Shown here in pieces: positions 3,325 to 56,229 of a DNA stretch of 64,000 bases (position 1 is the first letter of the stretch; every line of letters starts with the position of its first letter). The notes below the pieces were generated by a model that had not been told where the DNA came from, searched no databases, and was given only the letters and a program-made list of their open reading frames with translations. A program made the position numbers and the translations under genes. Where the stretch lies: NCBI GenBank assembly GCA_977017645.1, contig OZ360239.1, positions 56,110,001 through 56,174,000 on the forward strand. Direction: 5' to 3'. Origin of the DNA: Torpedo marmorata. Lineage: Eukaryota.

Positions 3325-3835
3325 GTTTGACACATTTGCCTCCAAGTCAGGCCGTGGGTTCAAGCCTCTCTCCAGAGACTTGTGCATATCATCTGCACTG
3401 AGTGAGTGCCTTATAAATGAGGCAATAAACTTGAGGCCCTGACTGCCCCTCAAGGATTTAAGAGACACCAAAAGGTCCCACAACACTCCAAAGATGGGTC
3501 CCTGACTGCCCTCTCAAGAATGTAAGAGACACCAAAAGGTCCCATAACACTCCAAAGATGGGCCCCTGATTGCCCCCTCAAGGATATAAGAGACACCAAA
3601 AGGTCCCATAAAACTCCAAAGATGATTTACCATTAAATTCTCATTATGTCCAGATCAACTTTCATCCCTCAATGAATCAATAACTGATTATCTTTTTCTT
3701 GGTTTAATTTCTGCCTTGGAGACCTTTTTTAGTGTTCTGCCATCAGTGACTATGCCTCAAGCAACTCTAAGGTTGCAAAGCACTTTGGAGTATCCTGGAG
3801 TAATGAAAGGTGCTCCATTTATGCACTTCTTGCTT
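3325..3835 (+). mobile_element. Degenerate DeuSINE (SacSINE1/AmnSINE-like) downstream of the SLC35G1 stop
   Basis: B-box-like gggttcaagcc, Deu-domain-like gaggccctgactgcccctc, and 3' part cagtgactatg...gcactttgg...gaaaggtgct...atgca resembling the recalled DeuSINE consensus. Confidence 0.6.
3435..3624 (+). repeat. Three tandem copies of a 62-64 bp unit inside the DeuSINE
   Basis: ccctgactgccc(c)tcaag.at.taagagacaccaaaaggtccca.aacactccaaagatg at about 3435, 3497 and 3561. Confidence 0.92.
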
Positions 3836-9611: not shown

Positions 9612-10109
9612 TAATAACAAAATGGCAGCATGAGGTCGGGTTATACATGATAATGGAATGGCTTCTTTTGTTTCTTCTGGTGATATCAATGACAAACTTG
9701 TTATGGTACAATCAAAAGGTTTGCAATAATACACACAATAACTATAGAGAGGAAATGACACTAACAACCAGAACTGCACAGCAGTGCATTTACAGCTGGA
9801 CATGTGTGCTTTACCAAGGGCACCACATCTGGCAACACCACATGTCAGCATATTCTAAGATACAGGGTTGCTCCAGACTATCATGAAGGGCATCACCAGG
9901 AACAATTGGCAGTTTGTGTAAGGCCATTGTGCTTTTACAGAGTGGCAGGTGTCACAAAACTCCAAGGGGCCAAGGATTACCTTAAAAACCTACTTTGCTT
10001 TATAACATGACCTGTGTCTAGTCAAATGTATTTTACTCTGTTTTTGACTAGCATCACATGTAACTGAATGCTCAGCCCCTGTGAGTTGCCACGAGGTTCT
10101 TGCCATAAG

Positions 10110-10340
10110 AGAAACACAGAAGCTGCAGATGGTGTAATCTTGAGGATATGACAAGAATCTGAAAAACCTCAGTGGGTCAGACAGCACCCATGGATAAAAA
10201 AGGTCAGTCAACAGTTTGGATTGGGAGTCTTTATCGAGACCCGGTCAAAGGGTCCTGATCCAAAACATTGACTGACCATTTCTAACCAGGGATGCTACCT
10301 GAGTACCTGCAATGTTCCTCCAGCAGCTCATTGTTTACTC
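10110..10340. mobile_element. Old fold-back Penelope pLTR fragment
   Basis: Imperfect inverted arms ggtcagtcaacagtttggatt / atccaaaacattgactgacc around ~10242; pLTR-like ctgcagatg..., ctcagtgggtcagacagca. Confidence 0.55.
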
Positions 10341-11682
10341 CTGTCTGTTTGCTTTCCTTAAGACAGAAAAGCCCATCGCTAAGCCGATATTGCACATAGC
10401 TCAGCAGGCCTGAAAAGTTAACTCCACTTTCTCTTTTCACAAATAATGTCTGACCTGGTGAACATCACCAGCTTTTTCTCCGTTTATCCCTCAACTTGTC
10501 TGCAGATGACGCCATTGGTCAAATTGCTAAAGTAGTGCCACAATCTGAATGTTGACGGACAGCAGTGAAAATTATGACCTCAAGTCTTCTTCATGTTCTC
10601 CTGCATTACAAAATAACCACAATTCTAAATTGCCGATTTAAAATACCTTGGAACATCCTGACTTTGTGGGGAAAACAATTTGAGTGCCAGCATTTTAATT
10701 TAAAATATCTGTCCAAGTTAATTAAGATAAACTTCAAGTAAACCGAGAAGCTTATAATGTTTTTTATTCTTTGTTAATTTCTTAATTATTTTAAATGAAT
10801 TTGTTTTTGTGCAATCAGTCGGTTTCTCTGATATTTTCCTCAAAATCTCTCCACAAAAGTTGAGACATGATGAACAATTTAAAGTGGGTTATCTGTCTCT
10901 ATTCCATTTCAGCCACATAACCCAAAATTTTCCTGAGCACCTTGGTGATCCTTGTTTAAGGAAATCGAGGATTGTGGGGTTAGTGAAGGGAAGCGTGGCT
11001 GAGATGAAGATCAGCCATGGTCTTACTTTGACGCTGGTGCAGGACAAGAAACTGAATGGCCGATGCCTAATTCTACATGTTCCCCATCCCTGCATTGTTC
11101 AGCATGGTTTATAAACTAAGAATTTTTAAAAAATCTTTAAACAAACAAAGTAACCAGGTCACATGGAGCAGCTGGACTGCTTACTAGATAAGTGTTGTAG
11201 GAATAGTTGGAGGCGATTGGACAAAAACATGAAGAGTCCTGAGGTTTGGCTATTCCAATGGTCATGGTGAATGGTACAAAGAGCGAGGGGACTTGATATC
11301 CTGGCAAAAAGTTGTTTTAAAAAAAAACTCTTGGTTCATTTGTGCTTCCCAAGAGGAAAGTTCTGTTGTTTTTACTTGGTCTAGCCTAATGTGACACCAG
11401 TTAGGATTTTTAATGGCCTTCTTAAACAACACTGAAAACTCTCAATTTAACACCATTAAATATAATACTGTATATGAAATAGCAGAAGGACTAGAAATGT
11501 AGTCCAATGCTCTTAGGAGTTCCAGAATTTAAACCTGACAATATGCTTTGTGTGACTAAGAGAGGAGACAACAGTGATTACTTCCATTCATTTGAGTTTC
11601 TTGTCTGTCTTGGTGGTTGAAGTTGCAGGTTTGTAAGGTGCTGTCAGTATAACCGAGGGAAGTAAGTGGAGTAGTATACACT

Positions 11683-22717: not shown

Positions 22718-23093
22718 CAGTGGTTTTCAAACTGCCCCCCTAAACTCACATTCCACCTTAAGCAATCCCTATGCCATAAGTGCTCTGTGATTAGTAAAGG
22801 ATTGCTTAAGGTGGTATGTGAGTGGAAAGAAAAAGGTTTGAAAACCACTGTTTTAATCGTATCTAATTGACTCGTTATGTGCACGGTTTCATAACTCCAA
22901 AGGAAATGGGCCAATGATAATTTTTCTCAAGCAAAATATTTCAGTAACAATTGGGTCTAGAGCAGTGGTTCCCAACCTTCCCTTCCCACTCACATACCAC
23001 CTTAAGCAATCCCTTACCAAACACAGAGCAATTATGGCATAGGGATTGCTTAAGGTGGAATGTGAGTTTAGGGGGGCAGTTTGAAAACCACTG
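22718..23093. mobile_element. hAT (Charlie-type) MITE, composite
   Basis: TIR cagtggttttcaaactgcccccc / ggggggcagtttgaaaaccactg; perfect 8-bp TSD ttttagac (22710-22717, 23094-23101). Confidence 0.93.
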
Positions 23094-23814
23094 TTTTAGA
23101 CCATGGGGAAAGATTTCCTACCATCTACTCTATCTAAGCCCCTCATAATTTTTCATACTTTCTCAGGTCCCCTCTCACCCTCTGCTTAAAGGAAAGCATA
23201 CATAATCTATCTAGTCTCTTCTCTTAACTGAAATGTTGCATCTGAGATAATATCCTGGTGAATCTCCTCTGCATCCTCTCAAATGAAGCCAAGGAATATT
23301 CTGACATTTTAGGATAAGCCTTGAATATTGAGCAATGTTCAAAGCAATGTTTTCTGCAGCTCAGCCTGACCTGGCATGGTATGGATAAACCCGTTCGCTC
23401 TGCACTTCCAGAACTTGGCAGATGTGATCTGGACTGGGGGTAAAGGGCAGGGTGAGGGACACCAATAGTTTAATGGGACCAAGACAACAAAGATGGAAAT
23501 ATGAGCATGTCAGCAGGTAAATAGGTCAAAATCAGGAGCAATTGAGTTGGAAGAGTAATGGGGAAATGAGGATAGAAAGAAGGAAAAGTTCAGCAATGGC
23601 TTATTTATATTTGAGATGATGGAGAATACTGACGGACTCCAAGGTAATGAGTCGTGTCACTAACCATGATGCAATGGGTGGGCTTACCATTTACATCAAC
23701 TTTGGAGTGTGAAGAAGAATTTTAACAAGAAATTTGAATATAGTCATTTTGTTTAAACAGTCAAATCAATAAATGTAGTTTGTTTTTTACACTAATGTGC
23801 TGTCTTAAGTTGGA

Positions 23815-33089: not shown

Positions 33090-33575
33090 TAGACATTATG
33101 GGTGAAGGCTCTGTTCCTGTGTTGCACTGTTTCATGTTCTGTAAGCACTGATTAAAGAAAGCATGGTTCATCATCTGTAGAGATCAGATAGAGATAGGGA
33201 CACTACACTTATAAACAACTTGCCAAGTCAAAAACAATGTTAAATAATTCTGACATAACATGCTTAAAAATTGTTAATCCTGATTGATCAAGGCTGTAGT
33301 TATTTGATTGTCTTTAGTGTGAGCAGTGGGTAATTATCCTGGGTACACCATTGCAGTGATTTGTGCTGCAAAAAAATGATTGCTGCACTGTCTGCTGAAT
33401 AATTTGTTGAACTAGACCTTGACCTCTATACACAAATGTAAGAGTATCTCAAAAATCTTGTAGTGAACTCATTCACTGACAAAGACTGGAGACCTTGGGC
33501 TGGGCTGTCTCTATGCAACTTCTAACTACTTTAAACTAATGTTTATATCACATCCCTGTACTAAAACACAGTAAA

Positions 33576-33735
33576 GAGTGAAACACTAAAGCCTGCAGAC
33601 GCTGTGATCGTAGTAAAGACACACCGAAATGCTGGAGGAAGTCAGCCGGTCTTTTCAGCGTCCATAAAATATATCTTTGCTTTTTATGTACGCTGAAAAG
33701 ACCGACTGAGTTCCTCCAGCATTTCAGTGTGTTTT
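33576..33735. mobile_element. Fold-back Penelope (family A) mini-insertion
   Basis: pLTR terminus gtgaaacac..., inverted arms; 14-bp TSD taaaacacagtaaa (33562-33575, 33736-33749). Confidence 0.85.
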
Positions 33736-33906
33736 TAAAACACAGTAAAAATCCACCTTGAGATAGGAGCAATTGTGACTAAGTTAACCTAACCTATCAG
33801 CAGAAAGGTGCCATGCTTAGAAGGTGATGGTGGGCCATGGTGGTATTATTCCCACCATTATATTCAGAAGGAAATTCCAGAATATTGATAAGGTGATTGT
33901 CAAGGA

Positions 33907-34514
33907 AAGATTCAAGATTCCTTTATTGTCATATAATAAAGACAGTTCAATATTACACCAAATTTGCTTTTGTCTGCCACAAGGCAGACAGATTCACCAT
34001 CGGCAGAAATTGTCTGAAGCGCCTCTTACAGTCAGAGAAAGATAAGCAAAAGAGGGTCCCCCCCCAGAGTCACCGAGTGTCCGTGGATTCGCCTCCAGCG
34101 CTCCCGAAGCCTCTGCAGCCACACAGACTCCAGACCAAACCATCAGCAGCCTGAGCTCTAGATCCGAACCTCCGACATGATCAGGAAACCATCAGTGCCC
34201 TCGGAACCCTCTCGCATCGCGGTTGCAATACCTGATATTCCTTCAGTCAGTCTCGAGCCAGTCTCCAGCTGTCCGCCACCTGGTGTGAATCCCTCGACCG
34301 CAGTCACCAGTAGCCCACAGCCTGTGTGGGTTCCTCGTCTTGGGTCGCCAACAGCCCACCGCTTGTGTGTTCTTCAGCCGCAGAACCCCTCACTGGTCGG
34401 CCGTCGTGGTCACCGTCCCGTAGATTGTTCCCTCTGATTCTCTTTCTTAAACGGGGGGTGTTCTCCCTGTTTTCTGGTGCTCTGCACCAGTCCTCTGCTT
34501 CCCCGGAGTTTGCA
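33907..34514 (-). mobile_element. 5'-truncated copy of the GC-rich Rex1-tailed non-autonomous element
   Basis: Diverged reverse complement of ~15585-16169; tail aagattcaagattc. Confidence 0.82.
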
Positions 34515-34935
34515 ATACATTTCCATGTCTGAATTCTGTGTGGCTTGAAAGGAAACCAGATATTATGGTGATGCTGCAACATTGCTGTTTTATTTCAATT
34601 TCCCACCATGAGAAGTCATGCAAGAAAGAAGCCTGTCAAAGTTATTTTAGAAATGCGTGCCAGTGCACCTTTAAGAGCATGGATAATAAAGAAGCAACTG
34701 CTCTGTTCTTAATGGTGTTTAGATTTTTACATTGGATTCAACTTGAAGAATGGTGGAAATGTAAAGATTCTTCTGCATTGAGTCTTGCTTTGAAAGTATC
34801 AGTGTTAGATTGAAGATTAATAATTGACCCAGTATTAAGTAATATCCAGTGTCCAGGATTTTTTTAAACTTTGCTTCTGAAAGAAAAACATACAATTATA
34901 AAAATATCCAACAAGTCAGCCAGTATCCATGGAGA

Positions 34936-35165
34936 GTGAAACACGGAAGTCTGCAGACGTTGTGATTGTAGTAAAACACACACAGAAATGCTGGAGGAAC
35001 TCAGCCGGTGTTGCTATGTCCATAGGAGGTAAAGATATATTACAGATGTTTCGGGCCTGAGCCCTTCTTCAAAGTATGGTACCTTGAAGAAGGGCTCAGG
35101 CCCGAAACGTCAGTAATATATATCTTTACCCGCTATGGACACTGCGACACCAGCTGAGTTCCTCG
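34936..35165. mobile_element. Fold-back Penelope (family A-like) mini-insertion with two opposed hammerhead cores
   Basis: 14-bp TSD agtatccatggaga (34922-34935, 35166-35179); ~85-bp inverted arms centred near 35078. Confidence 0.9.
35079..35117 (+). ncRNA. Minimal type I hammerhead ribozyme motif (PLE-associated, C3U variant)
   Basis: cc-TTGAAGA-a-GGGC-tcag-GCCC-GAAAC-GTC: core boxes, 4-bp stem II, palindromic ACGT stem III. Confidence 0.7.
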
Positions 35166-35260
35166 AGTATCCATGGAGAAACAATTTAAATTTTGCTTAT
35201 GACACAGGAACCAATTTGGGCTATCAACTTCATGTCAGCTCTCAGGGAAATCCAATATTC

Positions 35261-38200
35261 AAAATGGCGCCTTACATCGGCGACTCTTTGCGAGCAGCTC
35301 TGAAGGGAATAATCAAATATTCCCGTTCAGAACTTCTAAAAATCAAACAAAAGACGAGAAACATAAAATCAAACTTACCCAACAACATGGATGTACTAAG
35401 ATCGCTGGCAGACCTTAGAATCGGCAGTCTCAGTCGGGCCGCGGGAACTTTAAACAGCTCGCGCAAGTACAACAACAACACCGCGGGAATTTTAAACAGA
35501 CAGAGAACAGGCCATTTAAACTTTGCGGGAGTCGCAGACAGCAGGCACTCAGCAAACTTAAACATCGTGGAGGATTTAAAGAGACAGTTCCCACGGTGTT
35601 TAAATGGACCGTGCGCTATCAGCAGCGGACTCACGGGCCAGGTAAAGAAGACCCGACAACGTGGACGCAGAGGGGGGGGGGCTACAGGTCAAGATGAGAT
35701 ACCGGGACCTGAGGCTTCCGCTCCCTACCATCCTGGCCAACGTACAATCCTTGGAGAACAAACCTGATGAACTCCAAGCCAGACTTCAACATCAGAGAAT
35801 CATCAGGGAGTGCTGCGTGATGTGCTTTACAGAAACATGGCTAAACGTGGACATTCCAGACACAGCGCTGCAGCCCAAGGGCTACATCCTCCATCGCGCT
35901 GACCGAACACCGGCGTCTGGAAAAACCAGGGGAGGCGGCGTTTGTGTCATCATCAACTCATCGTGGTGCACAGACGTGACGGTCATGTCCCAGTCCTGCT
36001 CCCCCGACCTGGAACATCTGGCGATCAAGTGTCGCCCATTCTACCTGCCGAGGGAGTTCACCGCCATCATCCTGGTCGCAGTGTACATTCCACCCCAGGC
36101 TAACGTCAGGCTGGCACTGGAGGGACTGAGCACTGTGATAAACAGTCATGAGACAGCACATCTTGATGCCTTCCCGATCATCGTGGGAGACTTCAATCAG
36201 GCCAACCTGAAGGAGTCTCTGACAAACTACCACCATGCGAGACCAGGGGAACCAACACACTCGACTACTGCTGCACCACCATGAAGAACGCATACTGAGC
36301 CATACCACAACCGCACTTCGGCAAGTCTGATCACCTGGCTGTACTACTCCCGGCGTACAAGCAGAGACTGAAGACCACAGCACCAGTGGTGAAGACGGCG
36401 AAGGTATGGTCGAGGAAGGCGGAGGAGCGTCTGCAGGACTGCTTTGAATCGGTGGACTGGAACATATTCAAGAACTCATGCATAGACCTGAATGAATATG
36501 CAACAGGTGTCACCGACTTCATCAAGACCTGCGTGGATGAGTGTATGCCCACGCGCAAATACCGGGTGTTTCACAACCAGAAGCCCTGGATGAATCAGAG
36601 AGTTCGCAACCTGCTGAGGGCGAGAACAAGGGCGTTTAAGACCGGGGATCGGGATCTTTACAAGAAGTCCAGGCACGACCTGCAGAAGGCCATCTCTGAA
36701 GCAAAGTGGCAATTCTGGAGGAAGCTAGAGACAGAGACAGATACACGCCAGCTATGGCAGGGAGTGCAGGCCATTACAGCCTACAAAGCGAGGGCGAACA
36801 CTATAGACGGCTGTGATGCTTCACAACCCGATGAGCTGAACACCTTCTATGCCTGCTTTGAGAAGAGGAACCAAACAGTGCCTACTAGAATCCCTGAAAG
36901 GGCTGAGGACCCTGTGATATCTGTCTCTGAGGGTGACGTCAGAACATCATTCAAGAGGGTGAACCCTCGCAAGGCGTCAGGCCCTGACAGCGTACCTGGC
37001 AGGGTACTGAAAATCTGCGCCAACCAACTAGCCGGAGTGTTCACGGACATTTTCAACCTCTCATTGCGGCAGACAGAGGTTCCCACCTTCTTCAAAAGGG
37101 CATCAATCATCCCGGTACCCAAGAAAAGTACTGTGAGCTGCCTCAACTAACTTCTACTGTGATGAAATGCTTTGAGAGGCTGGTCATGGCCAGAATTAAC
37201 ACGTGCCTAAGCAAAGATCTGGACCCACTGCAATTCGCCTATTGTCACAATCGCTCCACAGCAGATGAAATATCGCTGGCTCTCCACTCAGCTCTGGATC
37301 ACCTCGAAAACAGCAATTCATACATACGGCTGCTCTTCATTGACTACAGCTCGGCCTTCAATACCATTATTCCCTCAGTGCTGGTCAAGAAGCTACAAAC
37401 TCTAGGCCTCTGTACCCCACTCTGCAACTGGATCCTTGACTTTCTCATCAGAAGACCACAGTCAGTACGAATTGGAAACGACGTCTCCTCCTCACTGATC
37501 ATCAACACAGGCGCACCCCAAGGATGCGTGCTTAGCCCACTACTCTACTCGTTATACACCCATGACTGTGTGACCAGGCACAATTCCAATGCCATCTACA
37601 AGTTTGCCGATGACACCACAGTTGTCAGCAGAATCACAAACGGCAATGAGGAAGTGTACAGGAGGGAGATAGATCAGCTCGTTGAATGGTGTAAAGACAA
37701 CAACCTTGCGCTCAATGTCAGCAAAACCAAGGAGATGATTTTGGACTTCAAGAGGAAGTCAGGGGAACACGTTCCAGTCCTCATCGAGGGCTCAGTAGTG
37801 GAGAGGGTCAAGAACTTCAAATTCTTGGCTGTCAACATCTTCGAGGATCTGTCCTGGAACCTCCACGTTGATGCAATCACAAAGAAGGCTCACCAGCGGC
37901 TATCCTTTGTGAGGTGTCTGAGGAGATTCGGTATGTCACCGAAGACTCTCGTAAACTTCTACAGGTGTACCGTGGAGTGCATTCTGGCTGGTTGCATCAC
38001 TGCCTGGTATGGAGATGCCAACTCTCAGGACAAGAATAAAATCCAGAGGGTTGTTAACTTGGCCTGTGACATCACAGGCACCAAACTTCACTCCATCGAG
38101 GACATCTACATGAGGCGGTGTCTTAAAAAAGCAGCCTCTATCCTCAAAGACCCCCACCACCCAGGCCATGCCCTCTTCACTCTGCTACCATCGGGAAAAA

Positions 38201-38440
38201 GGTACAGGAGCCTAAAGACGAGCACTCAACAGCACAAGGACAGCTTCTTCCCCGCTGCCATCAGATTCCTGAATAATCAATGAACCAAAGACACTGCCTT
38301 ACTTTTCGTGCACTATTATTTATAATTTTTTATAGTAATATCGTAAGATGGTTATAATATGAATGTTAATTTCACTATGGTGCTGCAGCAAAACACCGAA
38401 TTTCATGACTTGTTCATGACAATAAATTCTGATTCTGATT
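35261..38440 (+). mobile_element. Rex1/Babar-type LINE subfamily A, apparently full length (~3.2 kb), inactivated
   Basis: Starts aaaatggcgcc; N-term YSRSELLKIK...RQRGRRGG; APE (ILANVQSLENK, CFTETWL, VYIPP, GDFNQ); RT ([13 protein letters not shown]); (attctg)n tail; frameshifts near 35675, 36235, 36345 and a deletion at ~37148. Confidence 0.95.
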
Positions 38441-38451
38441 ACTCTTTTATA

Positions 38452-38570
38452 TTGAGGTGAACAACCCCTCATATTCCACCGGGGCACCCTCCAACCAGAT
38501 GGCATTAACATCGACTTCTCCAGTTTGCGTTAGCACCCCGCCCCCCACCCCCCCCCCCCCAACCCACCCA
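38452..38570 (+). mobile_element. Penelope GIY-YIG C-terminal fragment
   Basis: gaacaacccctcatattc...ggcaccctccaaccagatggcattaacatcgacttctc = EQ.LIF..GTLQPDGINIDFS. Confidence 0.75.
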
Positions 38571-38583
38571 TCTACCCCTATGT

Positions 38584-38790
38584 AAAAGATGAAAATCTGT
38601 AGACACCGTGGTTGAAGTAAAAAACACAAATGCTGAAGAAACTCAGCAGGTCAAACAGTGTCTTTTATGTAGCAAAGGTAGAAATACATAACCGACGTTT
38701 CGGCCCGAAACGTCGGTTATGTATTTCTACCTTTGCTACATAAAATACAATGTTTGACCTGCTGAGTTTCTTCAGCATTTGTGTTTTTTA
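38584..38790. mobile_element. Fold-back Penelope (family B) mini-insertion, near-perfect palindrome
   Basis: 15-bp TSD catctacccctatgt (38569-38583, 38791-38805); ~86-bp arms centred on gacgtttcgg-c-ccgaaacgtc at ~38704. Confidence 0.92.
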
Positions 38791-40252
38791 CATCTACCCC
38801 TATGTCTCTTTTCCCTCTCTCTATTCCCCAAGCTCTGCATTCACAGAGCCAACTCGTCCCTCCCCATATCAATTCTCACCTTTCCTCTCTCCTGTCCTCC
38901 TATCCATACCCAGCTTTAGTGTGTTTTTACTGCAATCAGCCGTGTTTCACCCCCAAGTGCATATTCCACACACAGACTGCACTCGAGGTCAGATTTGAAC
39001 TCAGGTCTCTGAATCTATGAATGAACAGTGTTAAGGAGAAGCAGCCAGAATTACAGATTACAATGTGGCAGTCGTTAATAAAACTAAGAACCAGCATTCA
39101 CACTACTTTGAAATGTAACCTATAAGCAGTAATCAGCTTTGAAATTACAAAGACAACTGTACAAAGAAACAACACTGTCTATGAAGGGAATCCGCTTACT
39201 GGATCACAGCAGGACACCATAAGAAATATGCTCTGGAAACTGACAAGACAGTGAGATAAAAAGAGCAGTGGTTGAAATACTGTACTCAGTAGGTTAGGCC
39301 ATAGCTGTGGGGTGTGGGGGTAACAGAATTAACTGTCCAGGTTGAAGACTCTGCATCAGAACTGGGAAGAAGACAAAAGAAACTTGTTAAATTGCAGGGA
39401 AGGTGGGGGTGGGGGATATCCCTGAAAGGGTAACACCAGGATAATGATGGGAGATAAGCTGTAAACAAGGTTATCTAATCAATGAGTAAATGGCAGCAGA
39501 CAGAGAATGATAAAATAGACAAAAGAACATAGATAAAAGAATGTAGGAGTTGTAAAGTGCAGAACAGAAAGTTATGACCTTCAGGTCATGTTGGTGATGT
39601 CCTCTCCTCCACCCCCAGAGGAAAAACAGAGTGAAACACGAAAGTCCGCAGACTTTGTGATTGTAGTAAAAACACACCGAAACGTTAGAGGAACTCAGCC
39701 AGTCTTTTCAGCGTCTACAGGAGACATAGATATATTGCCAACGTTTCAGGTCTGTGTCCTTCTTCAAGGAATAAGCAGAATAAATCGGAAACAAGTCTCA
39801 GAATTCAGACAATGCTGGCTGGGGAAGGAATCCAGACCAACAAAAGGTGTTAATTGGATATGATAAGGGGGAGACAGAACTAGGGGAAGGCGACTGGGGG
39901 GGGGGGATTAACGAAAGCCAGAGAAGTCGATATTAATGCCATCCGGTTGGAGGGTGCAAAGTCGGAAGGTGAGATGTTGTTCTTCCAATGTGCGGGTGGT
40001 CTTAGTCTGGAAGTGCATGAGACCATGGACAGACATGTCAGCAAGGGAATGGGATGGAGAATTGAAATGGATGGCCACTGGGAGATCCACACTATTGCGG
40101 TGGACAGAGCCGAGGTGCTCAACAATGCGATCTCCCAGTCTGCATCCAGTCTCTTCGATGTAGAGGAGACCACAACGGGAGCACCGGATGCAGTAGATGA
40201 CCCCTGCAGATTCACAAGTGAAATGTTGCTTCACCCTGTACCCTGTAAGGAT

Positions 40253-40506
40253 TCAGAATCAGAATTTATTGTCATGAACAAGTCATGAAATTCGGTGTTT
40301 TGCGGAAGCATCATAGTGCAATTAACATTCATATTAACCATCTAACAACATTACTATAAAAAATTATAAACAATAGTGCACGAAAAGTAAGGCAGTGTCT
40401 TTGGTTCATTGATTATTCAGGAATCTGATGGCAGCGGGGAAGAAGCTGTCCTTGTGCCGTTGAGTGCTCGTCTTTAGGCTCCTGTACCTTTTTCCCATTG
40501 GAAGCA
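40253..40506 (-). mobile_element. Rex1 subfamily A 3' fragment nested in the Penelope element
   Basis: Tail tcagaatcagaatttattgtc; [29 protein letters not shown]. Confidence 0.92.
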
Positions 40507-40611
40507 TCTGCACCCAGGATGAGGACTTCCATGGCAGATCATCAGAGATGTCCTCCTTCAAACAACGTGGCTTTCCCTCTACCACCATCAACTTGGCGCT
40601 CACCTGTATAT

Positions 40612-41319
40612 AAAAGTAAACACGAAAATCTGTAGACACCGTGGTTGAAGTAAAAAACACAAAAGCTGGAGAACTCAGCAGGTCAAACAGTGTCTTTTAT
40701 GTAGCAAAGGTAGAAATACATAACAGACGTTTCAGGCTTGAGCCCTTCATCAAGGTATGAGAAAATGCCGGCAGGCGTCTGAACAAAGGAGTGAGGGGGG
40801 AAGGGGGGTGGGAAAGGCAGGAGATGATAGGTGGAGAAAGGAGGGAGGGGACAGCAGCAAAGAGGGGGAGGAGGGATGGCTGGGTGGGTGGGAAAAAACA
40901 GGAAGGACAGGTGAGGGGGAGGGGAAGGGAACAACAAGCAGGTTTAGTGGAAAGCAGAAAAGTCAATGTTAATTCCATCTGGCTGGAGAGTGCCGAGACG
41001 GAATATGAGATGTTGTTCCTCCAATTTGCGGGTAGTCTGGGTGGGATAGTACATGAGGCCATGGACAGACATGTGAGTGTGGGAGTGTGACCCAGAATTG
41101 AAATGGTTGGCTACTGGGAGGTCGCTGTTGTTGCGGACGGAGAGGAGGTGCTCAGCAAAGCGGTCTCCCAATCTACGACCGGTCTCTCCAATGTATAGAA
41201 AGCCACAAAGGGAGCACCGGATGCAGTAAATAAGTCCTCTGGATGTACAAGTGAAGTGTAGTTTCACTTGGAAGGCCTGTTTGGGGCCCTGGACCGTGGT
41301 GAGGGGGGAGGTGTGGGCG
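40612..41319 (-). mobile_element. Penelope family B 3' fragment nested in family A
   Basis: GIY-YIG ORF 40944-41267 (LIYCIRC..CGFLYIGETGRRLGDRFAEH); 11-bp TSD cacctgtatat (40601-40611, 41320-41330). Confidence 0.9.
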
Positions 41320-42197
41320 CACCTGTATATCCTCCATTACCTGCACATCTCCCCTGGCCCCTTCCACCCCCACATGCAACAAGGACAGGACTCCTCTTGT
41401 CCTCACCTACCATCCCACCAGCCTCCGCATCCAACACGTCCTCCTCCACCATTTCCGCCACCTACTACGTGATCCCTCCACTAGACACATATTCCCCTCT
41501 CCTCCCCTCTCCACCTTCCGCAGGGACCGCTCCCTCCGTGACTCCCTTGTCCACTCCTCCCTCCCCACCAATCGTCCCCTTGGGACCTATCCCTGTGACC
41601 GCAGGAGATGCTCTACTTGCGCCCACACCTCCTCCCTCACCACCATTCGGGGCCACAAATAGTCCTTCCAAGTGAAGCAACATTTCACTTGTGAATCTGC
41701 AGGGGTCATCTACTGCATCCGGTGCTCCTGTTGTGGTCTCCTCTACATCGGAGAGAATGGACGCATACTGGGAGATCGCTTTGTTGAGCACATCGGCTCT
41801 GTCCGCCACAATAGCGTGGATCTCCCAGTGGCCACCCATTTCAATTCTCTATCCCATTCCCTTGCTGACATGTCTGTTCATGGTCTCATGCACTGCCAGA
41901 CTGAGACCACCCATAAATTGGAGGAACAACACCTCATCTTCCAACTGGGCACCCTCCGACTGGATGGCATTAATATCGACTTCTCTGGCTTTCATTAAAC
42001 CCCCCCCCTTCTTCCCCCGTCGCCTTTCCCTATCTCTGTCTCTCCATTCCGTCTCCTTTCACACAAACATGATAAATTCTTACCTCACCCCTTATCATAT
42101 CCAATTAACAACTTTTGTTGGTCTGGATTCCTTCCCCAGCCAGCATTCTCTGAATTCTGAGACTTCCTGAGATTTCCTGCTTCTGTCTTATTCTGCT

Positions 42198-42238
42198 TAT
42201 TCCTTGAAGAAGCACTCAGGCCCGAAACGTTGGCAATA
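42198..42238 (+). ncRNA. Minimal hammerhead ribozyme motif in family A pLTR (stem II damaged)
   Basis: tattcc-TTGAAGA-agcactcaggccc-GAAAC-GTT-ggcaata. Confidence 0.6.
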
Positions 42239-43729
42239 TATCTTTGTCTCCTATAGACGCTGAAAAGACCGGCTGAGTGCCTCCAGCATTTCTGAGTGAT
42301 TTTTATAGATGATGCCTGTCGAGAGTTTGTCTCCCGAGATGGAGACAGAGAGATCAAGGAAAGGGAAAGTGTTGCTAGAGATGGACCAAATGAATTTGAG
42401 GTCGGGGTGGAAGTTGGCAGCAAAGTGGATGAAGTCAAGGAGCTCATCATGGGTACATGAGACAGCACCAAAGTAGTCATCGATGTAGCAGAGGAAAGGT
42501 TGAGGGGCCTTGCATGTGTAGGCTTGTAGCATGGATTGCTCCACGTAGCCAACAAAAAGGCAGGCATAGCTGAGGCCCATGCAGGTATCCATGGCAACCC
42601 CTTTGACCTGGAGAAAGTGGGATGAGTCAAAGGAGAAACTTTTGAAGGTGAGGACAAGTTCTGCCAGCCGGAGGAGGGTGGTGGTGGAGGGGGACTGGTT
42701 GGGTCTATTGTCAAGAAAGAAACGAAGGACTTTGAAGCCTTCAGTATGGGGGTTGGAGGTGAATAGGCATTGGATATCCATGGTAAACATGAGGCGATTG
42801 AGTTCAGGGAACTAGAATTTGTTGAAGTGATGGAGGGCATGTGAAGTGTCCCGGATGTAGTCGGGGAGGGACAGAAACAGGGGTGACAAAACAGAGTTGA
42901 GGTAAGCAGAGACCAATTCGGTGGGGCAGGAGCATGTGGACACGATGGGTCTGCCAGGACAATTGGGTTTGTGGATCTTCGGTAGGAGGTAGAAACGGGT
43001 TGGAGGCCGTGCCAGAGAGGTGACCGGAAGTGATGAGTTCAGAGATGGTGTGTGATACAGTGGTTTGATGAATTTTGTTGCGGTCCTGTTAGAGGGTAAG
43101 TAAGAGGAGGTGTCTGAGAGTTGTCATCTGGCTTCGGCCAGATAGAGGTCAGTGCGCCAGACCACAACAGCAACACCCTTGTCTGCAGGTTTGATGGTGA
43201 GGTTCGGATTGGTGCGGAGAGAGCGGAGGACCAGGCATTCCGAGTGGGTGAAATTGGAATGAGTGAGGGGAGTAGTGAAGTCGATACGGTTGATGTCACG
43301 GCAGCAGTTGGAAATATAAAGGTCCAGAGCAGGCAGAAGACCAGAATGAAGTGTCCAGGAGGAGGAAGAATGTTTGAAGCGGGAGAAGGGATCTGTGGTT
43401 GTGGAAGTAGGCATAGAGATGGAGCCGATGGAGGAAGAGTTCAGCATCATGGCATGCGCGGAACTCGTTAAGGTGTGGACGAAGGGGGACGAAAGTGAGG
43501 CTTCTACTGAGGACAGAGCATTCAGTCTTCGAGAGGGGAAGGTCGGCGGGGATGGTGAAGACTAGGCAGGGGTTAGGGAGAGGTTCAATGGGGTGGAGGG
43601 TGTCGGGGAAGGGAGGAGGATGGGATGGATCAGGAGGTGGAGGGTAGGAATGGTCCAGGGGAGGATTGGGAGGGTTGGGAAAGTCAGAGGGTGGAGGGAG
43701 AGAGCCCTGTGGGCTCCCGGAGCCAGGAT

Positions 43730-44150
43730 GGGAGTTCACGACGGAGGCTCAGTCCTGTAGATCGCAGGGGCCAAGGTGGAAATCTGCTTCCGATGCTCGG
43801 TTCTGTAGGTCGCCTAGTTCAGGGTGAAAGTTCATGTCGGATGCTTGATCCTGTACATTGTCGAGGCTGAGACAGAGACCCACGTGTGAAGCCCAGTCCT
43901 ATGGGCCGGCGGGTTCAGGGTGGAAGTTCATGTCGGAGGCTTGATCCTGTAGGTTGCCGGGGACGAGATGGAGACCCGTGTTTGAAGCCCGGTCCTGAGG
44001 GCCGGCGTATTCAGGGTGAAAGTTCATGTCGGAGGCTCAGTCCTGTAGATCGCTGAGGCCAAGGTGGAGACCCACGTCAGGAGCTCGGTCCTGTAAACCA
44101 CCAAGGCCAGAGTGGAGACCCACGTGGGAGTTCACCGAGGCGGCTGTCTC
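43730..44150. repeat. ~96-bp imperfect tandem repeats in the Penelope N-terminal linker
   Basis: ttcagggtgaaagttcatgtcgga.gct recurs at about 43818, 43914 and 44011. Confidence 0.8.
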
Positions 44151-45013
44151 CAGGGACGCGAGCTTCCGATCCTTGATGGATGCCAGGTGTGCGTAGAATC
44201 AGCGGTTGATCCCATGGATCCAGCGGAGGATGAAGTGTAGGAGAGGTCCATGACAGATCGTAGCGAGTGAGGTACGGAGCCGTGGTAGTGAGAGCTCGCT
44301 GGTACCTGCGCATCAAGCTGAGGGTAGTCCATAGGATACGCGGGCGAAGCGAAGAGAGCAGGAGTCAATGCAGTGCAGGTACCTGAGATCCCGGTGGGGC
44401 CAAACTGGAAGGCTTGGAACCGGAGCTGGAATCCACGTGACACCAGATGGCTGCGGAGGCAAATAGCCAGGAAAGACACATGGTTGTGGAAGCGAGTCTG
44501 GGTGAGAACATGGTCGTAGAGCTTGAGAGCAGCACGGAGTGCAGATAGGGAGCAGTGAGAGGACTCTCACCGAACTCCCTTCGAAGAGAGGAGAATTTCT
44601 TCAGGGTAGGCATCCCTCAAAGAGATTTCGCAGTGGATTAACTGAACTGAGTGAAACACGGAAGTCTGCAGACGCTGTGACTGTAGTAAAAACACACCGA
44701 AATGCTGGAGGAACTCAGCCGGTCTTTTCAGCGTCTATAGGAGACAAAGATTTATTGCTGACGTTTCGGGCCTGAACCCTTCAAGGAATAAGCAGAATAA
44801 AACAGAAGCATGAAATCTCAGGAAGTCTCAGAATTCAGACAATGCTGGCTGGGGGAGGTGTTAATTGGATATGATAAGGAACGAGGTAAGAATTTATCAT
44901 GTTTGTGCGAAAGGAGTCCAGAAAACTGCAACATGCCCAGATGAAAGATGAGGCATCGTTCCTCATTGTAACAGTTCAGGAGGGCACAGACTGATAAGTC
45001 AGAGCGGGAGTGG

Positions 45014-45503: not shown

Positions 45504-46014
45504 ATGATGGGGGATAAGGTGCAAACAAGGTTAGTGAGTCAATGAGTAAATGGGAGCAGATAGAGAATGATAATATAGACAAAAGAACATAGTTGAAAGA
45601 ATGTAGGAGTTGTAAAGTGCAGAACAGAAAGATAAGTCCTGCAGGTCAGGCTGGGGATGTCTTCTCCTCCACTCCACTCCCAGAGGTAAAACAGTCCAGA
45701 AGACTGCAACGTGCCCAGATGAAAGATGAGGTGCTGTTCCTCATTGTAACAGTTCAGGAGGGCACAGACTGATAAGTCAGAGTGGGAGTGGCAGGCAATG
45801 GGAACAGCACTCTATCTTCCGATCAAATTCTGCTCAAGCACCTATGTACAAATTGTAACAAAGATTGGATGACTGTTTCACTGAACAACCACGCTCTGTG
45901 GGTCTGAGCTTGAGCTTTCTGTAGCCAACCATTTCAACTCATCCAACCATTCTTACAGTTTAATTTCTGTCCTTTGCCCCATCCATTGTCAGGGGGAAGC
46001 CAAATTCCACCTGT

Positions 46015-46795: not shown

Positions 46796-46918
46796 CTCCT
46801 GGACAGCCTGAAACCTAACGAGACAAGTACCGATTTTTAAAAATGTAGGTAACTCCCACCCCCACCTAGATTTTGAAAAATCGGTACTTGTCTCATTAGG
46901 TTTCAGGCTGTCCAGGAG
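46796..46918. repeat. 123-bp hairpin, unclassified MITE-like fold-back
   Basis: ctcctggacagcctgaaacctaacgagacaagtaccgatttt / aaaatcggtacttgtctcattaggtttcaggctgtccaggag. Confidence 0.85.
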
Positions 46919-51720: not shown

Positions 51721-52458
51721 TGTGGTGGATGAAGTGGGAGACTTTTTTTTTCCTTACAAGATTTCTCAGTCAAGTTTTACTCAAGAAAGCCTGAAGATCT
51801 GGAAGACAAATCTTTACAAGAGGGAGACGAGATTGTTGCAAGCTACATTCCTGTTAATTGAACAGTTTCATGTGCAATGAACAGTGAAGTGTAACCAATG
51901 TACTGCTTGGGAAGCAAAAATGCCGTTGATAGTGGTTCGGAGCTCAGCACAACGACTTGTATGCCAAAATATGTCATTGGATTTTATTGTTCACCTGAAT
52001 CACAGAAATATACAAGGCATTTCGTTCAGAGAAGTACCTCTGATAGTATTATAGCAATTAACTGATAATTTATGTGCTGAAGTCTTTCTTTGGGTCATGA
52101 CGAACGATTTTACTAATTGATCCAAGTTGTAGTCTTCTGAGGTTGCGGTGTTTGTTGGTGGGTACATTCTCAAAAAGAATTTTAATGAGACTGCTGCTGC
52201 CACTTTACTGTGTGTTAATATAATGAACGTGAAGGCCTGGTATTCCAAGTAAACAAGTTTTGCCAAACAAAGAATATCACTGAACTGGCCTAAATATTTT
52301 TGACCCTAAAATAGACAAAGCTTTTTCAAGAATAAACCAGCTCTCATTGTATTAGTTACAAGGTATTGAATTGTTGAACAATCATGGTTTGTTTGGCTAT
52401 CAGTTCTTTCTAAATTAGTGTTCATGCTGAACTGAGATGGAGTCTTTTGTAAACAAGT

Positions 52459-53625
52459 AAAACACGAAAATCTGTAGACACCGTGGTTGGAGTAAAAAAC
52501 ACAAATGCTGGAGAAACTCAGCAGGTCAAACAGTGTCCTTTATGTAGCAAAGGTAGAAATACATAACCGACGTTTCGGGCTTGAGCCCTTCATCAAAGTA
52601 TGAGAAAATGCCGGCAGGCGTCGGAACAAAAGAGTGAGGGGGGGAAGGGGGGTGGCAAAGGCAGGAGATGATAGGTGGAGAAAGGAGGGAGGGGACAGCA
52701 GCAAAGAGGGGGAGGAGGGATGGCTGGGTGGGTGGAAAAAAACAGGAAGGACAGGGGAGGGGAAGGAAACGACAAGCAGGTTTAGTGGAAAGCAGAAAAG
52801 TCAATGTTAATGCCATCTGGCTGGAGAGTGCCCAGACGGAAAATGAGATGTTGTTCCTCCAATTTGCGGGTAGTCTGGGTGGGATAGTACATAAGGGCAT
52901 GGACAGACATGTGAGTGTGGGAGTGTGACTCGGAATTGAAATGGCTGGCTACTGGGAGGTCGCTGTTTTTGCGGACGGAGAGGAGGTGCTCAGCAAAGCG
53001 ATCTCCCAATCTACGACCGGTCTCTCCGACGTAGAGAAAGCCACAAAGGGAGCACCGGATGTAGTAAATAAGTTCTCTGGATGTACAAGTGAAGTGTAGT
53101 TTCACTTGAAAGGCCTGTTTGGGGCCCCGGACCGTGGTGAGGGGGCAGGTGTGGGCGCAGGTGTTGCACCTCCTGCAGGCACAGGGGAAGGTGCTGGGGG
53201 TGCGATGGGTGGGGAGGGATGAGTGCATGAGGGAATCATGGAGGGAGCGGTCCCTGCGGAAGGCCGAGAGGGGAGGAGAAGGAAAAATGTGTCTGGTGGT
53301 GGGATCCTGTAGTAAGTGCCGGAAATTCTGGCGGATAATGTGTTGGATGTGGAGGCTGGTGGGGTGGTACGTGAGGATGAGGGGGATTCTATGTTTGTTG
53401 CGTCTGGGGGCAGAGGGGGCCAGGGCAGATGAGCGGGAAATGGAGTAGATGCGGGTGAGGGCTGAGTTGATGGTGGTGGAGGGGAAGCCTCGTTTGTGGA
53501 AGAAGGCAGACATTTCAGAAGATCTGGACTGGAAGACCTCATCTTGGGAACAGATGCGGCGGAGACGGAGAAATTGAGAGAAGGGGATGGAATCCTTGCA
53601 GGGGACAGGGTGTGAGGAAGTGTAG
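52459..53625 (-). mobile_element. Penelope family B, 5'-truncated (RT thumb, GIY-YIG, pLTR)
   Basis: ORF 52782-53513 open through GIY-YIG; pLTR starting aaaacacgaaaatctgtagacacc. Confidence 0.92.
52562..52602 (-). ncRNA. Minimal hammerhead ribozyme motif in family B pLTR
   Basis: Minus strand: catact-TTGATGA-a-GGGC-tcaa-GCCC-GAAAC-GTC-ggttatg. Confidence 0.7.
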
Positions 53626-55334: not shown

Positions 55335-56229
55335 AGCCCCTTTTATACTGAAAAGAAAGCGACGTTAAAGACAGAACATTTCTGTCTTTAAGTCGCCTCA
55401 CTTACCTTTATAAAAAGGCAGATGGTGGATTGCCAAGGCGTAATCCAAAACGACTAGGAGGTAGACACAGAGGTGGAGCGAATCTCTCCACCTCCTCTAT
55501 AAAAAGAAAGCAGCCTAAAGCGTCTGGCAAGGGCGGTCTGATGACGTTGCAATGACACCATCAGCCCGCGACCCACGAGAGTTGATCTGTATGGCAATGG
55601 CCGTCTTCATTACCCATAATCCCCCACGCAGCTGGAACCGCTCTGCGTTTCCCTGACGCTGGCGCTGGCACTGACAGAGCAGTTCCAGCTGCGTGGGGGA
55701 TTATGGGTAACGAAGACGGCCATTGCTTGGCGCGTATGTTTGACTTCACGGCGGCGGGCGGCGCTACTGCACCACTCGCTCCACCTCCCTATGATCGGGA
55801 TGCCGGCTCCCGACCCAGCTCTGCATAAAGACAACGCTGGAAACGTCATGTAGGTCGTCTCCATAAAAAGTAAGTTCACCTTTTTATTTTTTTTCTTGAG
55901 CCTTCTTTATCAAGATTCAGTTTCAAGATTCAATTTATTGTCATAGTAATAAGACAGTGTCATATTCCATGAAATTTCTTTTTGCCTGCTGCAAGGCAGA
56001 CAGATTCGCCACCGGCAGAAATTGGCTAAGCGCCTCTAACATTCCTTACAGTCAGAGAAAGAGAAGCAAAAGAGAGTCCCCCCCAGAGTCACCGAGTGTC
56101 CGTAGATTCACCTCCAGCGCTTCTGCAGCCACACAGAGTCCAGTCAAAACCATCGGCAACGCGAGCTCCAGATCCGAACCTCCAACGCGGTCAGGTCGCC
56201 CTCGGCACCCTCGCACCATAAAAAGGGCT
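55335..56229. mobile_element. PIF/Harbinger-type non-autonomous DNA element
   Basis: TIR agccccttttat / ataaaaagggct; 3-bp TSD aat, and removal restores PLE sequence aaagtcaatgttaatgcc; internal ~52-bp-arm palindrome at 55594-55726. Confidence 0.72.
55911..56215 (-). mobile_element. 5'-truncated copy of the GC-rich Rex1-tailed non-autonomous element
   Basis: Close reverse complement of ~15875-16169. Confidence 0.88.

Follow-up and report, generated by a model that had tools for sequence, protein, structure and literature searches.

Within a 64,000-nt stretch of the Torpedo marmorata genome (contig OZ360239.1; hereafter “the window”), four short insertions each consist of the terminus of a Penelope-like element (PLE) followed by an inverted copy of that terminus, i.e., they are joined head-to-head, and one family alone contributes roughly 3,000 such stubs to this genome. 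We consider it reasonably likely that stubs are PLE-terminus insertions made anew at each integration, with both target nicks priming a cDNA and the cDNA ends then being joined. Two cDNAs, one from each nicked strand, were very probably involved, and it is rather probable that both were copied from one source RNA molecule. On balance, we favor the 5′ end of the RNA as the stop for a short class of stubs.

Head-to-head stubs and their parent elements

Three of the four stubs are flanked by exact target site duplications (TSDs; plus-strand coordinates) of 14, 14, and 15 bp, in agreement with the initial annotation of this DNA, which had described three young fold-back insertions with clean 14–15 bp TSDs. 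In element 1 (TSD copies 33562–33575 and 33736–33749, 14 bp), a tailed arm at 33576–33669 on the minus strand, the sense of the element, covers positions ~1–94 of the family A terminus, and a tail-less inverted arm at 33670–33735 on the plus strand covers positions ~40–108, reaching ~14 nt further inward. Element 2 (TSD copies 34922–34935 and 35166–35179, 14 bp) pairs a tailed arm at 34936–35079 (minus strand; positions ~1–146 of an A-like family, with the whole minimal hammerhead motif on the minus strand) with a tail-less arm at 35080–35165 (plus strand; positions ~54–145), the two mismatching at about 12 of 91 aligned columns. The arms of element 3 (TSD copies 38569–38583 and 38791–38805, 15 bp), a tailed one at 38584–38704 (minus strand; family B positions 1–123) and a tail-less one at 38704–38790 (plus strand; positions 37–125), overlap by 1 nt at their junction inside stem II. 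Element 3 inserted into the 3′ part of an older PLE copy, and in two other copies of this host PLE (L145 and L009) both flanks lie close together with the stub absent; the flanks of elements 1, 2, and 4 have no second copy among the loci examined. Element 4 (10108–10345, strand unassigned, third family, center ~10243 near the ribozyme) is the older fold-back that had been noted at ~10110–10340: it is a decayed head-to-head stub, for which no exact TSD of at least 8 bp was found, and its best candidate for a decayed 14-bp TSD (10097–10110 vs. 10350–10363) matches at 11 of 14 positions, borderline against chance.

The young stubs thus span two families, A-like and B, and their centers fall at or close to where they had first been placed: at C38704 within stem II (element 3), at 35079/35080 along the stem I 5′ strand (element 2), and at 33669/33670 ahead of the ribozyme core (element 1). 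The description of each as a terminus plus its own inverted copy stands for the head-to-head arrangement and fails for symmetry: the arms are not mirror copies, one carrying a 35–40 nt tail and the other beginning at position ~36–40, or at ~54 in element 2.

Stub termini run on into PLE coding sequence at 39629, 40614, 44649, 47040, 52456, and 54984. A longer family-B copy (52456–53560, minus strand) provided the coordinate reference (position 1 = 52456), with a predicted cut at 113/114, stem II at 122–133, the core at 134–140, and the stem I 5′ strand at ~141–148. The family-B terminus was found in tandem at both element ends, and partial tandems (pseudo-LTRs) gave 865 exact tandem junctions genome-wide, e.g., 44648/44649 in the window. 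An ORF of the family-B copy L166 matches the Pfam reverse transcriptase (RT) domain RVT_1 (32.2 bits, cut-off 29.6); the C-terminal ORF piece of this decayed copy had no Pfam match to a GIY-YIG endonuclease at E 0.001 or 10, and putative GIY-YIG-like and CCHH-like words are discernible by eye. Compared by eye with the hammerhead consensus, element 2 presumably has its core at 35084–35090, stem II at 35091–35103, GAAA at 35104–35107, and a predicted cut after 35111. Folding predictions partly recover the stem II and stem I pairing. Rfam returned no hammerhead match anywhere in the window at E ≤ 1, and only weak, sub-threshold miRNA matches on stub hairpins. In families A and B, no AG acceptor corresponding to the D. 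virilis-like intron 3′ end at helix I was seen by eye at the equivalent position. The putative hammerheads resemble the minimal ones of metazoan PLEs (Cervera and De la Pena 2014, PMC4209133) in their type I motif, short palindromic helix III, and additional base ahead of helix II, but have U rather than C at core position 3 in the families seen here (U3 variant).

Target sites and turn points across the genome

Among 118 eligible short inversions, 104 were flanked by an exact TSD of at least 10 bp. These TSDs had a mode of 14 bp, with 95 of the 104 measuring 13–16 bp, and TSD length was equal for short stubs and long insertions. This bore out the view that stubs arise by retrotransposition genome-wide. 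Both target edges display one base profile, with C enriched at −5 (0.43/0.40), A enriched at −3 (0.51/0.46), and G depleted at +1 (0.03/0.05). Together with the 14-bp mode, this profile supports a first step in which the element endonuclease, probably dimeric, would nick both strands 14 bp apart.

Turn points were sampled using six position windows along the family-B terminus and two along those of A-like families, and the counts cover only near-symmetric turn points inside these windows. Family-B junctions after positions 94, 110, 121, 140, 153, and 214 numbered 76, 116 (ribozyme cut site), 203 (stem II), 1,510 (hammerhead 5′ edge), 473, and 9, or about 82, 161, 422, 1,574, 597, and 11 once corrected for motif conservation and family share. 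These counts are not due to chance: backwards-read control patterns gave 0–2 matches per strand vs. 9–1,510 for the real ones. Inversion centers are therefore non-uniform and tied to the ribozyme region, as first suggested, and the genome-wide data show neither uniform centers nor a general lack of PLE-type TSDs in fold-backs. For A-like families, 497 vs. 33 junctions were counted, a weak second-family check since, among the 497, 15 loci were inspected and 6 of them belong to a family-B subfamily, and the counts have no downstream control window.

The peak lies at the far edge of the ribozyme, neither at the cut site nor at the stem entry. Self-cleavage, one of the two RT stops proposed by the initial annotation, does not fit the 116 junctions at the cut site vs. 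1,510 at the 5′ edge, nor arms that routinely extend through the cut site, and no pile-up of DNA ends was found at the cleavage site predicted after the GUC triplet. The other, a block by ribozyme structure, is at odds with a peak where RT would exit the fold rather than enter it. Microhomology was also considered as the cause of the main peak and rejected, the peak window offering less of it than its neighbors; it explains the 153 window (8-nt palindrome) and in part that of stem II. Ends of tailed arms showed a similar preference, with 10 at positions 141–149 in 1,046 nt at risk vs. 60 in 39,684 elsewhere, an interval picked after the junction data were seen, so that its Poisson P (6e-6) is post hoc.

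Pairing, lengths, and alleles of the two arms

Arm pairing was evaluated in 104 loci chosen by junction only, of which 83 belong to family B. Among these 83, a tailed arm was combined with the inner site in 68, with a more internal start in 14, and with a second tailed arm in 1, and pairs of tail-less arms were absent (0), i.e., exactly one arm was tailed in 82/83 loci; the inner start fell at 33–44 in 65/69. This regularity supports a second step in which one nick would prime at an outer RT start site, yielding the tail, and the other at an inner site ~36 nt further in. Two such start sites have been measured in vitro for an anole PLE (PMC11167929).

Arm lengths were compared in 30 inversions found among 140 termini chosen by tail only, a sample drawn largely within the initial 16 Mb of one contig. 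The tail-less arm was longer by >10 nt in 14, the tailed arm in 12, and the two were within 10 nt in 4. Of the 15 inversions with a long arm, 8 had a tail-less arm that exceeded the tailed one by hundreds of bases. The 12 inversions with a longer tailed arm would, alone, suit a single cDNA folding back on itself. Both arms measured ≤210 nt in 15 inversions, both were longer in 13, and only 2 were mixed (Fisher P 2.4e-6). A distinct short class exists (15/30 inversions), with turn points peaking at the ribozyme 5′ edge; arm lengths overall run continuously up to >2 kb.

Subfamily alleles likewise agreed between arms: at position 51, all 69 of 69 loci were concordant, where ~32 discordant loci would be expected if arms were independent, and some loci (L012, L219, L203) have private variants common to both arms. 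Shared alleles and length class support a third step in which both cDNAs would copy one RNA molecule, or two RNAs from one source. One molecule is not proven by this, as concordance is also expected if subfamilies were active at different times, if each cell had a single active source locus, or if one arm was converted by the other. Discordant non-CpG alleles recurred at positions 56 and 82 (3/71 and 3/76 loci; 5 and 8 discordant arms in a further locus set), which could reflect two templates or RT error hot spots; the mismatches between the arms of element 2 likewise weigh against a single template.

In a fourth step, the cDNA 3′ ends would be end-joined, often on 1–8 nt of inverted microhomology, which would turn self-complementary words, stem II among them, into minor hot spots. 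The fifth and weakest step concerns the short class, which may copy RNAs with a 5′ end at ~141–180, peaking at the hammerhead 5′ edge. Such ends would most likely stem from 5′–3′ trimming halted by a folded or protein-bound ribozyme domain, the next candidate being a minor transcription start at that place, and the ribozyme would then serve as a structural border, not as a cutter. For R2 templates, it has been suggested that a folded 5′ ribozyme holds back exonucleases (PMC11331408).

Alternative origins of the stubs

The initial annotation had offered another route, snap-back, in which RT is halted by the folded ribozyme or by self-cleavage, and the one cDNA made so far turns around and is extended on itself almost to the terminus; a published relative, self-priming on an antisense template, has been proposed for Penelope palindromes (PMC3846280). 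Alleles common to both arms suit this route, as do about 29 of 50 listed stem II junctions that turn at an intact stem-loop (counted by eye), and snap-back junctions occur at low frequency for R2 (PMC11331408). However, a copied arm cannot outrun its template, and the tail-less arm was the longer one in 14/30 inversions, window element 1 included; later central deletions might obscure the comparison where arms are short, though not where they differ by hundreds of bases. Of the 7 stem II junctions with a loop, 4 have it on the tail-less arm (L011, L173, L177, and L178 vs. L175, L181, and L183), perfect palindromes without a loop are common, the cut-site window is ten-fold below the peak, and snap-back gives no reason to halt at position ~37. 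It is thus largely refuted as the main route and very unlikely overall, a minority share of stubs being conceivable. Less probable still, to the point of being barely credible, is that the hairpins form a non-autonomous mobile family, MITE-like as first proposed or retrozyme-like, copied as a unit. Identical junctions do recur at different loci, three junction words being shared by 7, 6, and 4 of 39 inspected loci, yet these 39 loci hold 25 junction types, and the 6 loci with one identical palindrome span at least three subfamily allele sets, each matched between arms, i.e., recurrence crosses subfamilies rather than marking one family. The continuum of arm lengths to >2 kb, the TSD length shared with long insertions, and the unequal termini, one tailed and one tail-less, also argue against such a family.

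Two further alternatives, each of which we consider unlikely, bear mainly on the stop of the short class. In one, transcription starts just upstream of the ribozyme and produces a short 5′ segment, on which RT coming from the 5′ repeat runs off at the cap, as in a strong-stop cDNA; this is a variant of the fifth step and compatible with the other four. Family B has at 142–148, and A-like copies at the matching place, an initiator-like word. This word doubles as a stem I strand and has ~7% chance odds in a 9-nt window. A precedent exists in D. virilis, where transcription starts 46 nt ahead of an intron ending at helix I (PMC2377424, PMC4209133). Against it, only 2/50 upstream tandem copies end at 141–149 vs. 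10/120 (Fisher P 0.51; 4.3 expected) and 41/70 continue beyond position 179; because a sharp 141–149 peak or transcription-start pile-up, looked for in these tandem copies, was not seen, a dominant start site there is excluded. In the other, the two nicks prime on separate RNA molecules, which derive from one source locus and are bound by a dimer, and the joint stop arises when the complex releases after copying the protein-bound domain (tail to ribozyme), not at an RNA end. This would suit the pairing, the symmetric target, the allele concordance, and the recurrent discordant alleles, as well as the lack of an evident sharp peak in upstream tandem copies, which RT passes in elongation, and the predicted fold pairs across positions ~20–180. 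It gives, however, no reason for one start site per arm (82/83), and the end rate at 141–179 is about equal in upstream tandem copies (0.50% vs. 0.56% per nt).

Discussion

Short stubs are the short end of a published PLE layout. EN+ PLEs are described with an inverted 5′-truncated copy and a one-sided 30–40 bp tail (Craig et al. 2021, PMC8557442; Arkhipova et al. 2013, PMC3846280), and share with the stubs the head-to-head copy, the tail at one end, the TSD, the junction overlap or palindrome, and, as far as the motif can be read by eye, the hammerhead in the terminal repeat. They differ in that stubs here measure only 160–230 bp in all, without coding sequence, and have a 14-bp TSD vs. 8–10 bp in rotifer. 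While the overall layout was already known, the short ribozyme-edged class and the pairing of one start site per strand set these stubs apart. In these same two sources, the tail is explained by endonuclease resolution and palindromes by self-priming; the arm lengths observed here contradict the self-priming account. For the anole Poseidon PLE in vitro (Frangieh et al. 2024, PMC11167929), the protein cuts and extends both strands, two RT start sites bound the tail, a dimer is predicted, and ribozyme cleavage is dispensable. Start sites were alike on both strands in that system, whereas here we find strictly one site per strand, and that study is not known to account for inverted insertions. 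Animal retrozymes are likewise short, non-coding, and PLE-derived, but tandem (bioRxiv 10.64898/2026.07.22.740005).

MITEs are also short and shaped as inverted repeats, but move as a unit with equal termini; the stubs differ from both MITEs and retrozymes by their unequal termini and locus-specific junctions. In L1 twin priming, second-strand priming occurs upstream at a variable position and the two pieces barely overlap, whereas the second PLE start is fixed ~36 nt in, so that both cDNAs copy the same stretch and a hairpin results. In both processes, the element RNA is copied into another cDNA from a primer on the second target strand, and the joined products are TSD-flanked (bioRxiv 10.1101/2024.12.14.628481). 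A literature search, with most subscription papers and Repbase notes outside its scope, found no description of paired priming for PLEs, of ribozyme-edged stubs, or of shark or ray mini-elements.

The stubs themselves are dead by-products. Since weak Rfam miRNA matches fall on their hairpins, annotators should be aware that these are prone to miscalling as MITEs or microRNA precursors; long Penelope inverted repeats with dsRNA and small-RNA output have a precedent in Drosophila (PMC3681739). The origin of PLE inverted ends and tail was called undefined in a 2021 review (PMC8557442), and the products of this reaction, which number in the thousands in a single genome here, suffice to dismiss self-priming as its principal route. 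Paired priming makes sharp predictions for the anole in vitro system, namely one start site per strand, one source RNA, and an RNA end at the ribozyme edge. The stubs also bear on the role of the PLE hammerhead. As a tentative proposal, paired priming may be obligate: a dimer would cut 14 bp apart, two cDNAs would start on one RNA at the sites bounding the tail, and the hammerhead would mark, as a protected border and not as a cutter, where a short class of RNAs has its 5′ end, such that the inverted repeat, the one-sided tail, and the thousands of ribozyme-edged hairpins would all be products of one reaction.

Short inverted Penelope-like insertions and their abundance

Elements 1 (33576-33735), 2 (34936-35165) and 3 (38584-38790) each consist of a Penelope-like element (PLE) terminus followed by an inverted copy of the same terminus. 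All three are flanked in the window sequence by direct repeats that match exactly over 14, 14 and 15 bp, i.e., the three young fold-back elements with clean target-site duplications (TSDs) are present as the initial annotation described. In element 1, the tail-less arm extends ~14 nt further inward than the arm carrying the terminal tail. For the older stub (~10110-10340), whose arms are decayed, a search for an exact TSD found none, and an 11/14-match candidate was borderline. Longer copies of the same termini within the window reach PLE coding sequence, and one family-B copy elsewhere in the genome includes a reverse transcriptase (RT). Stubs also occur inside PLEs: element 3 sits in the 3′ region of an older PLE copy (both within 38464-38910), and the stub L176 is inserted in a family-B terminus. 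In a composite PLE block (39629-44916), a family-A terminus with its tail lies at 39629; a family-B copy runs from 40614 and inverts at ~41320; an inverted family-A end lacking the tail lies at ~42303; and at 44648/44649 an ORF start and a terminus meet in a tandem junction. The block seems to interrupt a repeat with an intact copy at ~45510-45760. Further hairpin-shaped stretches with weak Rfam miRNA matches and no PLE terminus (46813-46901, 22952-23104 and 55621-55699) are possibly DNA-transposon MITEs.

The repeat types appear to resemble those of a cartilaginous fish. Across the 6.2-Gb genome, exact matches to the 34-nt tail motif number 27,688. Of 140 termini picked by tail only (98 from the first 100 listed motif places and 42 from another locus set), 91 were single and another 6 were single but cut by the locus end; inversions with a tail-less arm numbered 29 and those with both tails 3, and 11 termini were inverted in other ways. 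Scaling the 15 short inversions in 140 to all motif occurrences puts the family at ~3,000 stubs; this is a rough lower bound, and the sample came largely from a single contig. The proposal that stubs form a MITE-like mobile family of their own is rejected: 39 loci displayed 25 junction types, and the six loci sharing one identical palindrome spanned at least three subfamily allele sets. At locus L166, LTR-type retroelement fragments (340-2790) and LINE reverse transcriptase fragments (3426-4860) adjoin a long PLE copy, as judged by eye.

Turn points cluster at the ribozyme edge

In family-B numbering (position 1 = window 52456), and against the hammerhead motif consensus, we take stem II of the hammerhead to occupy 122-133, the core 134-140 and the 5′ strand of stem I ~141-148, with a predicted cut at 113/114. 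Core position 3 is U instead of the usual C at 35084-35090, 52589-52595 and in most family-A and -B copies.

We then counted, genome-wide, near-symmetric junctions ≤15 nt past a 10-nt motif, with backward-read motifs as controls (0-1 junctions) and with counts corrected for motif conservation and family share. Junctions numbered 76 after position 94 (~82 corrected), 116 after 110, which spans the predicted cut site (~161), 203 after 121, in stem II (~422), 1,510 after 140, at the 5′ edge of the ribozyme (~1,574), 473 after 153 (~597) and 9 after 214 (~11). Since independent shortening of the two arms would yield a computed ~1-2 junctions per window, only the window after 214 is near that level. 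In the peak window, family B accounted for 28 of the 39 loci inspected, and less microhomology was on offer than in neighboring windows. Turn points are thus tied to the ribozyme, as had been proposed, but the cut site does not act as the stop (116 vs 1,510 junctions); element 2, turning beyond stem I, represents the modal turn, while element 3, turning in stem II, does not (203 junctions). In the tail-picked sample, tailed arms ended at 141-149, a window set after the data had been seen, at 0.96% per nt (10 ends) vs 0.15% at other positions, and the rate at 150-179 (0.42% per nt) formed a shoulder. For A-like families, counted in two matching windows, junctions numbered 33 and 497; since 6/15 inspected loci of the 497 belonged to a B subfamily, this peak is weaker evidence.

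Probable origin of each insertion from two cDNAs

Short inversions have unequal arms: one carries a 35-40 nt tail, while the second begins at 33-44 in 65/69. Family B made up 83 of the 104 loci chosen solely by junction; exactly one arm was tailed in 82 of those 83, and none lacked both tails. In 14/83, the second arm begins beyond the inner site, at positions ~50-102 (e.g., L177, L192, L206, L210, L211 and L213), and in some of these the second arm and the target end apparently have a few bases in common, as in conventional twin priming. At L215, the tailed arm contains a ~25-nt internal inversion just before the ribozyme (centre -60 to -30).

Arm lengths were compared in 30 inversions of the tail-picked sample, including L095, added by hand, and five lengths corrected where the alignment ended at an indel. 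Fifteen inversions had two arms of ≤210 nt, 13 had two longer arms and 2 had one of each (Fisher P 2.4e-6). The tailed arm was >10 nt longer in 12, and the tail-less arm exceeded it by hundreds of bases in 8/15 long cases. The initial annotation had a single cDNA snapping back to copy itself, which requires the copied arm to be contained in the first, yet the tail-less arm was >10 nt longer in 14/30. It also requires a loop, yet loopless palindromes with a 2-8 nt overlap were frequent. Arms overlapped in 72/104 short inversions, a set enriched for symmetric junctions, and in 7/14 of the tail-picked subset. Both features are thus often absent, which speaks against snap-back as the main route.

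Exact TSDs flanked 104/118 insertions (mode 14 bp), and the base profiles of the two target edges, read inward, matched. This agrees with an anole PLE, for which PMC11167929 describes cutting and extension of both strands, RT starts at two sites that bound the tail, and a predicted dimer. The arms have a common source: position 51 alleles were concordant in 69/69 loci, vs ~32 mismatches expected for random pairs, and a few private variants were common to both arms. Against a single RNA molecule, subfamilies may have had separate periods of activity, and discordant alleles recur between arms at positions 56 and 82. Arm differences at family-B 56, 66, 82, 98 and 101 are mostly changes to A, with the position-82 change on the tail-less arm in 8/8 discordant cases; this may reflect a site prone to RT error or the use of another template. 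Taken together, arm lengths, target symmetry and allele sharing argue strongly for two cDNAs per stub, and moderately for one source RNA.

Origin of the ribozyme-edge peak

Because RT runs from the tail inward, a blocking fold would stop it at entry (~107 or ~122), whereas the peak lies at the exit side. Coupled arm lengths and the hundred-fold drop by 214 instead suggest a shared limit, most simply the template RNA's 5′ end, at which both arms would end. A dominant transcription start at the ribozyme edge is not supported by tandem junctions (70 examined of 865), in which 41/70 upstream copies extend beyond 179 and 2/50 end at 141-149, vs 4.3 expected at the non-tandem rate; none of those examined ended within 117-140. 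We favor trimming, in which the RNA would be cut back to a folded or protein-bound domain, by analogy with R2 ribozymes, for which a barrier role has been proposed (PMC11331408). Besides trimming, the complex may be released there, or a minor transcription start may lie at the edge. In L368 and L381, arrays of repeated units (42 nt and 32 nt) follow the point at which the upstream tandem copy is truncated; the units are copies of the terminal sequence of the element itself.

The inverted-copy layout of PLE insertions (PMC8557442, PMC3846280), siRNA from long Penelope inverted repeats in Drosophila (PMC3681739) and twin priming in L1 (bioRxiv 10.1101/2024.12.14.628481) were already known, while a literature search, with most subscription papers outside its reach, found no paper on PLE paired priming or ribozyme-edged stubs. 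The mechanism initially proposed is half right: its link to the ribozyme stands, but snap-back as the main route and the cut site as the stop do not. The stubs are real and represent a short version of an insertion type already known for PLEs, and their value lies in the mechanistic statistics they provide.
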